The notes beneath the pieces are model-generated. The model had not been told where the DNA came from and did no database searches. It was given only the letters and a program-made list of their open reading frames with translations. Below are positions 1,883-4,737 of a stretch of 5,707 bases of DNA, in pieces. Source of the DNA: a virus (Duplodnaviria > Heunggongvirae > Uroviricota > Caudoviricetes); IMG/VR virus record IMGVR_UViG_2695420430_000007; one strand, given 5' to 3'. How positions within the stretch are numbered: position 1 is the stretch's first letter; every line of letters begins with the position of its first letter. Both the position numbers and the translations under genes were made by a program.

Positions 1883-2197
1883 CTACCTGAGCTTTGGTGA
1901 TAGTAAGTTGAAAATTCGCATTTTTTGCTGACATGCGTAACGAGAATCCCATAAGCAGGGAGGACTTAATTCTTCATTAACCCATGCGTTGATATTATGT
2001 TTCAGCCGTTGAAGCATCAGCGGTGTTAATGTTGTGGTAATAATATCCAGCGTTTTATGTGAGATCTTACCGTAAGGGTCTGCAAGAATGCTGCTTGTTG
2101 CTTCGTTATTATCTGCCATCAGAAGAAGTAACTCTGATTTAACGTTTTCTGTCATTAGTTGTAAAAATCTTCTGCGCAAACTTTCTTTACTGTTCAT
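1883..2197 (-). CDS. Hypothetical 104-aa protein on the opposite strand, inside an AT-rich insert between pinholin and endolysin
   Basis: A 104-codon ORF in AT-rich DNA, where stop codons are frequent. Starts MNSKESLRRRFLQLMTENVK. Perfect TATAAT on the minus strand at 2270..2275. No family recognised; Shine-Dalgarno weak. Confidence 0.45.
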   Translation of the reverse strand: MNSKESLRRRFLQLMTENVKSELLLLMADNNEATSSILADPYGKISHKTLDIITTTLTPLMLQRLKHNINAWVNEELSPPCLWDSRYACQQKMRIFNLLSPKLR

Positions 2198-2314
2198 TTA
2201 TATGGCTTCATTTGTTGTAATCTGCTGCGTCTCAAGGGATATGTTTATGAGAGCGACCATGAGTGTTGGATTATATACCTAACATATCAAGGGATTAGAA
2301 ATCGATAAATCCCC

Positions 2315-2848
2315 ATGAACGAAAAAATAAAATACGGCCTGTCGGCTGCCGTTCTGGCGCTGATTGGTGCAGGTGCTTCTGCGCCTGAAATCCTCGACCA
2401 GTTTCTGGATGAAAAGGAAGGTAACCACACCACGGCATACCGTGATGGTGCGGGGATCTGGACCATCTGCCGTGGTGCCATTCTGGTGGATGGTAAGCCT
2501 GTTATTCCTGGCATGAAGCTGTCAAAGGAAAAATGCGACCGGGTTAATGCCATCGAACGTGACAAGGCTCTGGCATGGGTGGAGAAAAACATCCGGGTGC
2601 CGCTGACCGAACCCCAGAAAGCGGGGATCGCGTCATTCTGTCCGTACAACATTGGCCCCGGTAAGTGCTTCCCGTCGACGTTTTATAAACGAATTAATGC
2701 AGGCGATCGAAAAGGTGCCTGTGAGGCGATTCGCTGGTGGATTAAGGACGGTGGCAGAGACTGCCGTATCCGTTCAAATAATTGCTACGGTCAGGTCTCA
2801 CGGCGTGACCAGGAGAGCGCGCTGGCGTGCTGGGACATCGACAGATAG
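2315..2848 (+). CDS. R: SAR endolysin, T4-lysozyme-like muramidase (GH24), phage 21 R-like (177 aa)
   Basis: N-terminal Gly/Ala-rich weakly hydrophobic segment YGLSAAVLALIGAGASA typical of a signal-anchor-release domain. Catalytic motif E-x8-D-x5-T in EGNHTTAYRDGAGIWT. Overall resemblance to P21 R / RrrD lysozymes as I remember them. Confidence 0.88.
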   Translation: MNEKIKYGLSAAVLALIGAGASAPEILDQFLDEKEGNHTTAYRDGAGIWTICRGAILVDGKPVIPGMKLSKEKCDRVNAIERDKALAWVEKNIRVPLTEPQKAGIASFCPYNIGPGKCFPSTFYKRINAGDRKGACEAIRWWIKDGGRDCRIRSNNCYGQVSRRDQESALACWDIDR

Positions 2849-2937
2849 CAGAATATTTTCCTGAAAAATGACGTTGGCCAACGCGGGTGGATAACACGAA
2901 ATCCTGAAAACTGGTAAAACCTAAGTGAATAAAAGTA

Positions 2938-2977
2938 AAAACCCCGTTTGTTGGCAGCAAGCGGGGTTTTGTGTTTT
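2938..2977 (+). terminator. Rho-independent terminator between endolysin and the spanin genes
   Basis: AAAACCCCG..CGGGGTTTT stem (about 10 bp with wobbles) followed by TTTTGTGTTTT. A-run on the 5' side makes it potentially bidirectional. Confidence 0.6.
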
Positions 2978-3068
2978 CTGACCTTGAGTAAGGCAAGGGA
3001 GAAATTATGGGTAGGGAGGTACTTTCCCTGTGAGGAAGTATAAAAGATTCTTTCTGAGGTTGTCCATT

Positions 3069-3182
3069 ATGAAAGGCATTGAAGTGGAGACGCCAGCCAG
3101 TCTGGATTTAACAAGAGCGGCAGCTTTTGCCATTCGTATTGTGGCCATTGCTGTTCTGGTCTGGGCAATCCGTTGGTGGTGA
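3069..3182 (+). CDS. Hypothetical 37-aa single-pass membrane peptide, stop 1 bp from the Rz start
   Basis: ATG at 3069 with GAGG at 3056..3059 (9-nt spacing). Translation MKGIEVETPASLDLTRAAAFAIRIVAIAVLVWAIRWW has a hydrophobic core and a WW C-terminus. TGA at 3180..3182, Rz ATG at 3184. Too short for the ORF track. Confidence 0.4.
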   Translation: MKGIEVETPASLDLTRAAAFAIRIVAIAVLVWAIRWW

Positions 3183-3183
3183 T

Positions 3184-3651
3184 ATGAACCGTGTTCTGTG
3201 CGTGGTTATCATTGTCCTGCTGGTGGCCTGTGGTGCGCTTAGTCTGGGGCTGAATCATTACCGTGATCACGCCATCATCTACAAAGAGCAGCGCGATAAA
3301 AAAGCCAGTGAGCTGGAGCTGGCGAACGCGACAATTACTGATATGCAGATACGCCAGCGTGATGTCGCTGCACTTGATGCCAGATACTCGAGGGAATTAG
3401 CCGATGCGAGAGCTGAAAATGAAACTCTGCGTGCTGATGTTGCCGCTGGTCGTAAGCGCCTGCGGATCAACGCCACCTGCTCCGGTACCGTGCGTGAAGC
3501 CACCGGCACCTCCGGCGTGGATAATGCAACCGGCCCCCGACTGGCAGACACCGCTGAACGGGATTATTTCATCCTCAGAGAACGGCTGATGGCAATGCAG
3601 AAGCAACTGGAAGGAGCACAGGAATATATCCGTACCCAGTGTATACCGTGA
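3184..3651 (+). CDS. Rz: Rz i-spanin (inner-membrane spanin subunit), 155 aa
   Basis: From ATG 3184: [68 protein letters not shown].. matches my recollection of lambda Rz ([47 protein letters not shown]..). N-terminal TM helix then coiled-coil. The track ORF from 3127 is an upstream in-frame extension. Confidence 0.9.
   Translation: [155 protein letters not shown]
3404..3589 (+). CDS. Rz1: Rz1 o-spanin (outer-membrane lipoprotein), embedded in the +1 frame of Rz
   Basis: MRELKMKLCVLMLPLVVSACGSTPPAPVPCVKPPAPPAWIMQPAPDWQTPLNGIISSSENG: signal peptide with lipobox VSAC, proline-rich mature part, conserved PPAWIMQP..DWQTPLNGIIS as in lambda Rz1. Lies wholly inside Rz in another frame. Confidence 0.88.
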   Translation: MRELKMKLCVLMLPLVVSACGSTPPAPVPCVKPPAPPAWIMQPAPDWQTPLNGIISSSENG

Positions 3652-4116
3652 TGTTTTGTTATGAAGGTGTTACTGGTAACGTTAAGGTAATTTAACAAAG
3701 AGTCAGTTCCGGACTTTATAGTGTGCTCAGTTCATGGCCAAAAACGATTTCTGTGATAAATATTTTGAATATTATTTACAGGTAAATGGAGTGGGGCACA
3801 TGGATAGAAATATTACAATAGAGAATGAAGTATATGCCCGTATTGTATGGGCAGAGAAGGCAAAAACACGGTAATTCCGTGTGTTGCCATGATACCTGAT
3901 TGGCAGAATAGTTGTTTGGTTTTGAGTATATAGTCAGCGTTTTTTGTTCAGTAATTGCTCCCTCAAAAAATAATAAAATAAGGTGATTATTTTTGTTTAT
4001 TATTTAGTTTTTTTTGTGTGTTGTTTTATTGTTTTTGCGTGGTTTGTTTTTTATTGTTATTTCATTAAGGGAAGGTAAATTCAGGATGGCAGTCTGTAGA
4101 TAATCGGAGGTCACTT

Positions 4117-4431
4117 ATGCTACATGATCACGTGGCAGAATGTTTGGAGAAAAAAGGACTGTACCGGAGAGCAGCTGAACGATGGGCAAAAGTGATGGTA
4201 CAGCTAAGTGATGACCAGAAAAGAAAAGTGGCGGCACAGAAACGAGCAGAGTGTTTGCGTAAGGCGCGCCGGACTCCGGTTTCACCGGTGAACCTGACCG
4301 AAATAAAACAAGCGGTCAACAGACTACATTCTGAGTTGGGAATGGGATTTGAAGAGCGGCGGGTATTCCGACGATATAAAGGGACAGGAGAACAGAATAC
4401 GTCCGGAAACGCGCGGTCAAAAAAATGCTAA
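4117..4431 (+). CDS. PerC-family-like small basic protein (Pch-like candidate transcriptional activator), 104 aa
   Basis: GGAGG at 4106..4110, 6 nt before the ATG. N-terminal EKKGLYRRAAERWAKVM resembles the GLWRRAA..RW signature I recall for PerC/Pch. Family assignment from memory; needs an HMM or BLAST check. Confidence 0.55.
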   Translation: MLHDHVAECLEKKGLYRRAAERWAKVMVQLSDDQKRKVAAQKRAECLRKARRTPVSPVNLTEIKQAVNRLHSELGMGFEERRVFRRYKGTGEQNTSGNARSKKC

Positions 4432-4467
4432 AAAATATCTGAGAGAGTTATTGCCTGTTACCATAAG

Positions 4468-4494
4468 AAAAAGCGACTTTAGTGGTCGCTTTTT
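4468..4494. terminator. Bidirectional intrinsic terminator between the convergent PerC-like and YlcI-like genes
   Basis: AAAAAGCGAC-TTTAGTG-GTCGCTTTTT: 6-bp GC stem flanked by A5 and T5, so it is hairpin plus U-run on both strands. Lies between the stop at 4431 (+) and the stop at 4513 (-). Confidence 0.7.
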
Positions 4495-4512
4495 GTGTCA
4501 TATATAAGTCGT

Positions 4513-4737
4513 TTAAGTAAACCTGTCTGAACAGGTGCTCTGGTCGTGTTTGTCTTTGTTGGGTACAAATTGAGAATATTTTTCATTAATTAATCTTCTT
4601 CTGCAGGCTTCAATAACCCACGCTGAAAAATTACCTGAACCTTTCAGGTCAAGAGCGATGTTAATTTGTTCAATTATCTGGTTTGGAAATCGGATGTTGC
4701 GGGTTGTTGTTCTGCGGGTTCTGTTCTTTGATGACAT
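4513..4737 (-). CDS. YlcI-like (DUF3950-like) small protein, 74 aa
   Basis: MSSKNRTRRTTTRNIRFPNQIIEQINIALDLKGSGNFSAWVIEACRRRL.. matches what I remember of E. coli DLP12 YlcI, which sits just upstream of the Nu1 homologue nohD there, as here. From memory, not a search. Confidence 0.55.
   Translation of the reverse strand: MSSKNRTRRTTTRNIRFPNQIIEQINIALDLKGSGNFSAWVIEACRRRLINEKYSQFVPNKDKHDQSTCSDRFT

Follow-up and report, generated by a model that had tools for sequence, protein, structure and literature searches.

The hok/mok/sok locus encodes a small hydrophobic membrane protein together with an overlapping upstream frame that is the antisense target, and a constitutive antisense promoter lies in the 5′ part of that frame. 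In the ldr/rdl loci of Escherichia coli K-12, the peptide consists of 35-37 amino acids (aa) with a C-terminal hydrophobic segment and a Trp-rich end, and the antisense RNA is directed against the 5′ leader. Within phage lysis cassettes, a membrane protein encoded between the endolysin and the spanin has an earlier example in P2 LysA. Here we analyzed a stretch of 5,707 nucleotides from IMG/VR virus record IMGVR_UViG_2695420430_000007 (hereafter the window; coordinates are window positions unless stated otherwise), which covers the late and lysis genes of a lambdoid prophage from enterohaemorrhagic E. coli (EHEC). The 335-bp spacer (2849-3183) between the endolysin gene R and the i-spanin gene Rz contains a 37-codon open reading frame (ORF), designated ORF37, whose product is much smaller than P2 LysA. 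We view this spacer as a compact mobile module that consists of a bidirectional terminator, an antisense RNA and ORF37 coupled to the next gene. The reading that we favor, and that we offer tentatively, is that ORF37 encodes an antisense-controlled, type I toxin–antitoxin (TA)-like small membrane protein at the spanin end of lysis cassettes.

ORF37 and its junction with the last lysis gene

ORF37 occupies positions 3069..3182 on the + strand and is preceded by a GAGG Shine–Dalgarno (SD) sequence (3056-3059) 9 nt 5′ of its ATG. The initial annotation had described the 335-bp spacer, a hairpin followed by a T-run (2938-2977), the ORF (3069-3182), its SD sequence and a C-terminal RWW motif, and each of these was recovered at the same position. 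Contrary to that annotation, the ORF was already annotated; it is ECs_1094 in prophage Sp4 of strain Sakai, EDL933_RS06270 in strain EDL933 and WP_000675931.1, a hypothetical protein. Its 37-aa form matches the functionally uncharacterized phage family phrog_4493 (E = 5.5e-16). In the product, a nearly invariant, acidic 16-residue N-terminus (MKGIEVETPASLDLTR) precedes a hydrophobic helix (AAAFAIRIVAIAVLVWAI) and RWW. Kyte-Doolittle hydropathy reached 2.6 over 15 residues (FAIRIVAIAVLVWAI) and 2.1 over 19 residues (positions 17-35). ORF37 thus combines a size of <60 aa with one predicted C-terminal transmembrane (TM) helix.

Homologues were sought using the GTG-extended 50-codon frame described below as the query. 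The family comprised 66 cluster representatives in E. coli, Citrobacter, Yersinia and Salmonella records, with Shigella among the cluster members. A scan of species-representative genomes identified no true homologue outside this prophage group, and matches to Streptomyces and to a Myxococcaceae metagenome-assembled genome were rejected as spurious. ORF37 had no match in Pfam, NCBIfam, PADLOC or PDB, a literature search for the peptide sequence or ECs1094 returned nothing, and the gene is absent from the novel genes listed by Hücker 2017 (PMC5597208).

To assess coding capacity, codons were compared among four lineages in which 21-24% of the ORF DNA positions differed. Each pair differed at 23-27 positions, with 15-20 of the differences at third codon positions and 0-1 at second positions. 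The Nei-Gojobori ratio of nonsynonymous to synonymous substitution rates (dN/dS) relative to the window sequence was 0.03-0.07, with synonymous sites near saturation, and amino acid identity across lineages was 86-100%. Both of the other forward frames contained stop codons in at least some lineages, and their ratios were at least 1 except for one pair. The decay of the frame in homologous regions, which the initial annotation had named as grounds for rejecting the gene, was therefore not what we observed. Because dN/dS is low, differences are concentrated at third positions and the control frames fail, we conclude from this codon-level evidence that ORF37 is a real, selected gene for a small membrane-type protein. 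The rare AGG codon that forms the ORF37 SD sequence is also invariant in every lineage.

We next consider the linkage of ORF37 to its neighbors, which was surveyed in 97 instances from fetched loci, 80 of them from IMG/VR. The gene on the 5′ side encoded an R21-type lysozyme in 57 loci, an M15 peptidase in 19, a GH108 protein in 15 and LT-IIB in 3, and the holins also differed among these loci. The lysozyme, M15 and GH108 endolysins are unrelated to one another. On the 3′ side we found Rz in 63 loci and a 60-aa lipoprotein, phrog_7528, in 34; in three LT-II loci among the latter, the lipoprotein frame is shortened to 16 codons. A TGA-N-ATG arrangement joined ORF37 to the next gene in all 97 loci. 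In the window, this junction (CGTTGGTGGTGAtATG; 3172..3186, + strand) places the ORF37 TGA 1 nt before the Rz ATG, and the final ORF37 codons supply an SD-like sequence (GGTGGTGA) for Rz. The CGT TGG TGG TGA end of ORF37 likewise provides SD-like GGUGGUGA for the next gene. The invariant junction fits the earlier suggestion of translational coupling, and we infer that the end of ORF37 is translationally coupled to the gene that follows.

ORF37 is far more conserved than the adjoining Rz. Identity between the window and GER2 is 100% for ORF37 and 56% for Rz, and the corresponding values for the GH108 lineage are 89% and 43%. Because of this difference, we conclude from the alignments that the ORF37/Rz joint is a recombination boundary between modules. 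Moreover, since the endolysins vary while the junction is fixed, ORF37 groups with the distal (outer-envelope) genes of the cassette rather than with its endolysin; R is the upstream boundary and lies outside the ORF37 module. The R-Rz junction thus acts as a modular exchange point, with the ...RWW-TGA-N-ATG joint connecting interchangeable upstream and downstream genes.

The coupling of ORF37 to the 60-aa lipoprotein was seen in cassettes that carry Phage_holin_8 and Phage_holin_3_7 with an M15 or GH108 gene (loci L011 1616-1798, L012-L016 and L085-L109). The phrog_7528 lipoprotein has the lipobox LVGC and three Cys residues in its 30-aa mature part, and no Rz/Rz1 follows ORF37 in these loci. 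We consider it possible that this protein disrupts the outer membrane in a way not yet described or takes the place of a spanin. Other small ORFs with a single predicted helix also lie directly before Rz, namely phrog_4906 (L025 5125-5271, Sakai ECs_1966) and phrog_6632 (L004 2659-2796, CP-1639), and tandem sets of up to three small ORFs precede Rz in L006 (1792-2140). In Stx2_14040 the phrog_6632 frame contains an in-frame TAG, and the small ORF of CP-1639 has a weaker promoter-like site inside it on the minus strand.

Many O157:H7 chromosomes contain the spacer with 100% identity, and only three single-nucleotide polymorphisms distinguish EDL933 from the window over positions 2200-3700. The counterpart of the window is prophage Sp4 in Sakai and CP-933M in EDL933. 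R and Rz overlap in the K-12 prophages DLP12 and Qin, and the initial annotation had taken a spacer between them to be out of the ordinary; its first 156 nt are, however, present in 2037 of 5426 complete E. coli genomes. LT-II enterotoxin operons are known to be inserted directly 3′ of the phage lysozyme gene (PMC3252337), and we also observed LT-II genes at the R-Rz junction directly in a fetched locus. In Sakai Sp9, Sp10 and Sp12, an antirepressor (ant) gene is inserted at the same junction. The R-Rz junction is therefore a real insertion hot spot.

Possible long form, antisense promoter and terminator

An upstream GTG in frame with ORF37 could give rise to a 50-aa long form (3030..3182, + strand; SD GGGAGG at 3014-3019). 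The 13-residue extension (RKYKRFFLRLSI) carries a +5 charge and is homologous to the N-terminus (MEKYKRILLRLTM...) of a 60-aa paralogue in strain 2014C-4135 (L007), which has a canonical ATG start and a GGGAG SD sequence. The 50-aa form matches phrog_4493 end to end (E = 1.4e-24, positions 1-54 of 56). Substitutions in the extension are almost all synonymous, and four of the five lineages retain a GGAG-N9/10-GTG arrangement, the exception being LT-II, where it has been lost. Since the AGG codon of the internal SD sequence is invariant and some lineages (L020 and L002/L006) encode short forms only, the internal ATG at 3069 looks like a genuine start on these comparisons. Two isoforms that differ by a +5 N-terminal charge are therefore possible. 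The SD sequence of the GTG form (3014-3019) lies within a hairpin and is covered by the antisense RNA described below. We also noted an 8-codon mini-ORF (3007-3033, + strand; ATG 3007, SD GGGAG at 2997-3001) whose TGA overlaps GTG 3030 (GTGA). A termination-reinitiation link into the long form is possible, and the mini-ORF is unconserved in other lineages.

Inspection of the spacer revealed a sigma-70 promoter, TGGACA-N18-TATACT (3066..3037, minus strand), with 7 nt between the −10 element and the +1 A at 3029. This is the sole promoter-like site on either strand within 2200-3800 and is unique in the window, and it overlaps the SD sequence and 5′ leader of ORF37. Both hexamers and their spacing are invariant in 31 of 31 distinct upstream sequences. 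The same geometry is predicted in L011, and the paralogous L007 module has TAGTCA-N18-TATACT with a predicted start adjoining its ATG.

Experimental support for the promoter comes from Cappable-seq of EDL933 (PMC10469882), a method that enriches primary 5′-triphosphate ends and that was applied to eight conditions in triplicate. Among the matches listed in Table S6 of that study is a u-asTSS at 1272098 (+) for gene 6270, present in 8/8 conditions. When anchored on the identical spacer, this transcription start site (TSS) falls at window position 3029 on the minus strand, at the predicted start, and gene 6270 of the EDL933 table is ORF37. No sense TSS for ORF37 or Rz was present among the listed matches for the eight conditions; the gene-associated TSS table, as far as its matches are listed, includes starts for the lysozyme, PerC and phrog_1853 genes. 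Scanning the spacer likewise gave no + strand promoter that could serve ORF37, and such a promoter was rejected on both grounds. The experimental TSS thus indicates that the promoter is active. Since it was found in all conditions with none listed on the sense strand, these data indicate that uninduced lysogens make the antisense RNA constitutively, whereas the sense RNA has no promoter of its own.

The resulting cis-antisense RNA would be about 100 nt long (2925..3029, minus strand), with a 5′ end supported by the TSS and a 3′ end predicted to follow the U-tract of the hairpin. It contains no AUG and is predicted to form three hairpins (−26.5 kcal/mol, z = −3.55). Its complement spans the sense leader with the SD sequence of the GTG form (3014-3019), and its 5′ end adjoins GTG 3030. 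Its bodies fall into three diverged types with little in common beyond the terminator stem. Every type nevertheless starts at the base adjoining the GTG, and the first 13-19 nt are complementary to the GTG-form SD sequence and its spacing, as in the pairing of 5′-GAGGAUUUUCUCC with GGAGAAAAUCCUC|GUG. Because the promoter and start are fixed while the body drifts and no seed is kept, a cis-antisense RNA fits better than a trans-acting small RNA (sRNA). Structure beyond the terminator was considered and is not relied on; a 4-bp 5′ helix covaries, but it has a 31-nt loop and conflicts with the single-sequence fold.

The antisense RNA is known so far only from a single row of a supplementary TSS table. 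The literature searched yielded neither an antisense nor a type I TA system of a lysis cassette, nor an RNA at this position. A whole-window scan identified no Rfam sRNA family, the sole match being a chance-level rimP-leader hit on the terminator (E = 0.9), and none of the Sakai R-Rz spacers that we checked has a listed Hfq peak. Several EHEC sRNAs were rejected as the spacer RNA by position. AgvB/AsxR and PasA/C/D are located upstream of the holin gene, and EcOnc10/11/12, which had been attractive candidates for their copy number and spacing, map 3′ of Rz, at the 3′ end of the antisense-oriented DUF3950 gene. The latter RNAs, which are abundant and Hfq-bound (Tree 2014, PMC4104026), lie at L025 5820-5868 in Sakai, equivalent to 1946819-1946867 (−), and also in Sp9 and Sp12; the analogous site in the window is at about 4440-4512 (−). 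A further signal from Sakai is XECs106, a 34-codon frame with an ATT start that was listed as translated on the basis of RIBOseq and RNAseq (Hücker 2017, PMC5597208) and corresponds to 2801-2902 (−). This frame lies opposite the end of R, just past the hairpin, and probably reflects partial read-through of the antisense RNA.

The hairpin itself (2938..2977) is GC-rich with a U-tract on each side. Its 15-bp stem folds with −21.9 kcal/mol on the + strand (z = −3.5) and −14.2 kcal/mol on the minus strand, where CCCCG...CGGGG is followed by UUUUUACUUUUAUU. The U-tracts on both strands therefore identify it as an intrinsic terminator in both directions. The initial annotation had read it in one direction only. 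From its sequence, the hairpin is predicted to end the antisense RNA on the minus strand and, on the + strand, to end Q-independent transcripts after R. The distance from the hairpin to the ORF ATG is a constant 125-138 nt in the lysozyme, M15 and GH108 lineages. The inner stem varies by lineage with pairing mostly retained, the outer stem shows one compensatory change (G-C to A-U), and the + strand U-tract is lost in the LT-II lineage.

Upstream of the hairpin, positions 2849..2937 (+ strand) form the 3′ flank of this R allele and travel with R in every arrangement, including that of Sakai Sp10, which lacks the hairpin. This segment contains the 12-bp palindrome CGTTGGCCAACG (2872-2883) to which attention had been drawn earlier. 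The palindrome is present, but 12-nt perfect palindromes occur twice in the window against 1.38 expected, one arm is mutated in GER2, and the element is absent from CP-1639 and Sakai Sp10. Since its frequency is at chance level and it is not conserved, we attach no significance to it and rejected it as an operator or binding site. GER2 has a hypothetical protein annotated on the + strand in an ORF that overlaps R and extends into the spacer (2652-2864); we rejected this ORF as not coding because a 1-nt indel breaks the frame in the window.

Proposed antisense control and its alternatives

What we take as established is the selected gene, the invariant 1-nt junction, the constitutive antisense TSS, the bidirectional terminator and, among the listed matches, the absence of a sense TSS in lysogens. 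Our model builds on these features. In the lysogen, the published TSS indicates that the antisense promoter would be constantly on, and the lack of a listed sense TSS suggests that no sense promoter would be active. A stray + strand transcript that extended past the terminator would pair with the antisense RNA along the leader, judging from the geometry of the two RNAs. This pairing would hide the SD sequence and start of the long form, and cleavage by RNase III would be probable. Upon induction, Q-modified RNA polymerase would pass the terminator such that sense RNA would outnumber antisense RNA. The peptide would then be produced, and terminating ribosomes would re-initiate on Rz or the lipoprotein gene. 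The peptide presumably works in the inner membrane. Because its soluble N-terminus is nearly invariant, a specific partner is likelier than non-specific membrane damage. Antisense control of a TA-like protein is compatible both with a lysis-timing modulator and with a true toxin.

The type I toxin-like character that had been proposed from the appearance of the peptide is thus borne out in part. The antisense TSS at 3029, the conserved promoter and the coverage of the long-form initiation region agree with it, whereas homology to a toxin family and an own promoter are lacking. The suggestion that ORF37 is a small toxin-like moron fared less well. ORF37 does not qualify as a classical moron, since the terminator lies upstream and no sense promoter was detected; its linkage to the last lysis gene is also constant.

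Several points weigh against antisense control of a TA-like protein. Toxicity of the peptide and repression by the antisense RNA are proposals. ORF37 has no sense promoter of its own, unlike classical type I toxin mRNAs, and searches of Pfam, NCBIfam, PADLOC and Rfam linked the locus to no family, Hok and Ldr included. The duplex does not reach the SD sequence and ATG of the short form (3056-3071), which may therefore escape control by the antisense RNA altogether. The length of the RNA and its 3′ end rest on prediction, and no Hfq peak for this locus is present in Table S2 of Tree 2014 (PMC4104026). In addition, the TSS data come from the Sp4/CP-933M copy, which is inverted and severed from PR′, and describe the lysogen state only. 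Finally, the synonymous rate was 0.28-0.41 in the promoter block and 0.64-0.72 in the ORF body, a trend only (p = 0.07-0.4), and since the block also codes for protein and holds the SD sequence, its conservation cannot be credited to the promoter alone.

A switch version of antisense control goes further, and we consider it unlikely. In this version the antisense RNA would silence both the peptide and the coupled spanin in lysogens, late transcription would override the silencing, and the peptide forms would help to time lysis; the peptide may perturb the membrane potential and thereby trigger the holin. In addition, given the 86-88% complementarity of about 80 nt of the RNA to R-Rz leaders of co-resident Shiga toxin (Stx) phages, the copy in a cryptic prophage such as Sp4 could dampen the lysis genes of those phages in trans.

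ORF37 could instead be a plain lysis accessory gene that tunes holin triggering, the spanin or delivery of Rz or the lipoprotein, with the antisense RNA being incidental or damping leakiness, and with no TA function. Such a role would explain why ORF37 is confined to lysis cassettes, where the last envelope gene invariably follows it directly, and why it has no sense promoter of its own. The same slot is also filled by phrog_4906, phrog_6632, phrog_1115 and phrog_3246, the simple lambda-like cassettes of DLP12 and Qin do without ORF37, as expected of an accessory gene, and the conserved soluble N-terminus suggests a specific partner. We nevertheless regard this explanation as doubtful. The presence of ORF37 with different holins, endolysins of three unrelated types and downstream genes of two unrelated kinds leaves no evident cassette-specific partner, and an accessory role does not account for the invariance of the promoter, for its activity in all conditions or for an RNA that starts exactly at the long-form start. 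ORF37 could also be a coupling leader only, which unfolds the mRNA and delivers ribosomes to Rz beyond the terminator while the peptide itself is functionless. The invariant TGA-N-ATG and an Rz SD sequence made from the last ORF37 codons are what such a leader would have. However, a functionless peptide would not hold a dN/dS of 0.03-0.07 and 86-100% amino acid identity between lineages in which synonymous sites are saturated, nor would it out-conserve Rz, and we consider this explanation very improbable.

The antisense transcript could also be mainly a trans-acting prophage sRNA that acts on mRNAs of the host or of co-resident phages, its position being a moron-type coincidence. The RNA carries anti-SD-like motifs rich in C and U, among them CCUCCCU and UUUCUCCCUU, it has an intrinsic terminator and a U-tail behind an A-rich tract, and late regions of EHEC prophages are rich in sRNAs (PMC4104026). 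Furthermore, about 80 nt are 86-88% complementary to the R-Rz spacers of Stx phages that share 2849-3004. A mainly trans-acting role seems improbable to us, as the promoter is fixed and the RNA always starts at one place relative to the GTG while its body is poorly conserved and falls into three types, and as the locus has neither a listed Hfq peak nor an Rfam family.

Few gene sets have been studied as thoroughly as the lambdoid lysis cassettes. ORF37 nevertheless has no assigned function, although thousands of genomes of E. coli, Shigella and related bacteria carry it, including those with Stx-converting and LT-II prophages. ORF37 also illustrates clearly how a small ORF can be validated from its evolution at the codon level. 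If the antisense RNA controls the peptide and the coupled spanin, it would constitute a new regulatory layer on phage lysis, with a bearing on the release of Shiga toxin, since release depends on lysis. The module would then be the first type I TA-like unit within a lysis operon. If damping in trans were to occur, it would link cryptic prophages to the release of toxin-encoding phages.

The surrounding cassette and comparison with known systems

The remainder of the window is organized as a lysis cassette. The holin of the cassette is an S21-type pinholin (1421-1627, Pfam). Between the holin gene and R, a phrog_1853 gene (1883-2197, minus strand; E = 3.5e-47) has a TSS at window position 2274 (−) in 8/8 EDL933 conditions among the matches listed in PMC10469882. 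This gene runs against the late operon and constitutes a second constitutive antisense-oriented unit within the lysis cassette. R (2315..2848, + strand; Phage_lysozyme, Pfam E = 7.6e-24) encodes an endolysin with a hydrophobic N-terminus, the signal-anchor-release form of the phage 21 type. Rz (3184..3651, + strand; Phage_lysis, Pfam E = 8.4e-49), the i-spanin gene coupled to ORF37 here, contains the embedded o-spanin gene Rz1 (3404-3589, + strand; PF06085, E = 1.7e-21). Just 3′ of Rz is a gene for a PerC/PchA-type regulator (4117-4431, + strand); its counterpart in Sakai Sp4 is PchA (ECs_1091), and regulators of this type are known to activate the locus of enterocyte effacement. Among the matches listed for EDL933, this gene has a sense TSS at window position 4064, 53 nt upstream, in 8/8 Cappable-seq conditions (PMC10469882). 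A DUF3950 gene (YlcI/YnfO; 4513-4737, minus strand) follows and is itself succeeded by a hairpin.

The window also contains a gene for the small terminase subunit and duplicated fragments of esterase and holin genes. The tandem duplication comprises the 3′ end of the esterase gene, the intergenic region and the start of the holin gene, with 1-224 repeated at 759-982 (99% identity) and 246-545 at 1159-1458 (95% identity). A truncated holin copy (508-627) consequently precedes the intact holin gene at 1421-1627. The best genome matches to this region come in three pieces, indicating that the exact arrangement is unusual.

In its layout, the module comes closest to the type I TA loci described as divergently overlapping, which are hok/mok/sok (plasmid R1 and the chromosomal or prophage hok copies of E. 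coli) and ldr/rdl. No match to the Hok, Ldr, TisB, Ibs, ShoB, DinQ or Zor families, or to the Sok, Rdl, IstR or Sib families, was found in Pfam, NCBIfam, PADLOC or Rfam. Like hok/mok/sok, the locus encodes a small membrane protein, its antisense promoter lies inside a frame that starts upstream and fires away from the ORF, and the antisense RNA can pair with the leader and SD sequence. In contrast to that system, the TM helix is C-terminal here and N-terminal in Hok, no dedicated sense promoter or mRNA with a 5′-3′ fold-back was found, the locus has no Pfam HOK_GEF or Rfam Sok match, and ORF37 sits in a lysis operon, coupled to Rz. The similarity to ldr/rdl, which we treat as a lead, lies in the size of ORF37, its hydrophobic Trp-rich C-terminus and the leader-directed cis-antisense RNA. 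ORF37 differs in having no Pfam Ldr_toxin match and in its location, as ldr/rdl is found in chromosomal long direct repeats rather than in a phage lysis cassette.

Within lysis cassettes, ORF37 is not spanin-like, as it has neither an N-terminal TM segment with a long coiled coil nor a lipobox. It also has no holin match in Pfam or PHROG, and an S21-type holin is already encoded at 1421-1627. With 37 or 50 residues and one C-terminal TM segment, it is smaller than any known holin class. Its possible two in-frame starts, with the longer form being more positive, nonetheless resemble those of the dual-start holins (lambda S107/S105 and phage 21 S71/S68), although the extension is 13 codons here compared with 2-3 codons in the holins. 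Among the other small ORFs that precede Rz, only phrog_1115 and phrog_3246, which are paralogues, are detectably homologous to ORF37. These two families, phrog_4906 and phrog_6632 all share with ORF37 the slot before Rz, a similar size and a single hydrophobic segment, and phrog_6632 ends in the same IRWW-TGA-N-ATG arrangement as ORF37.

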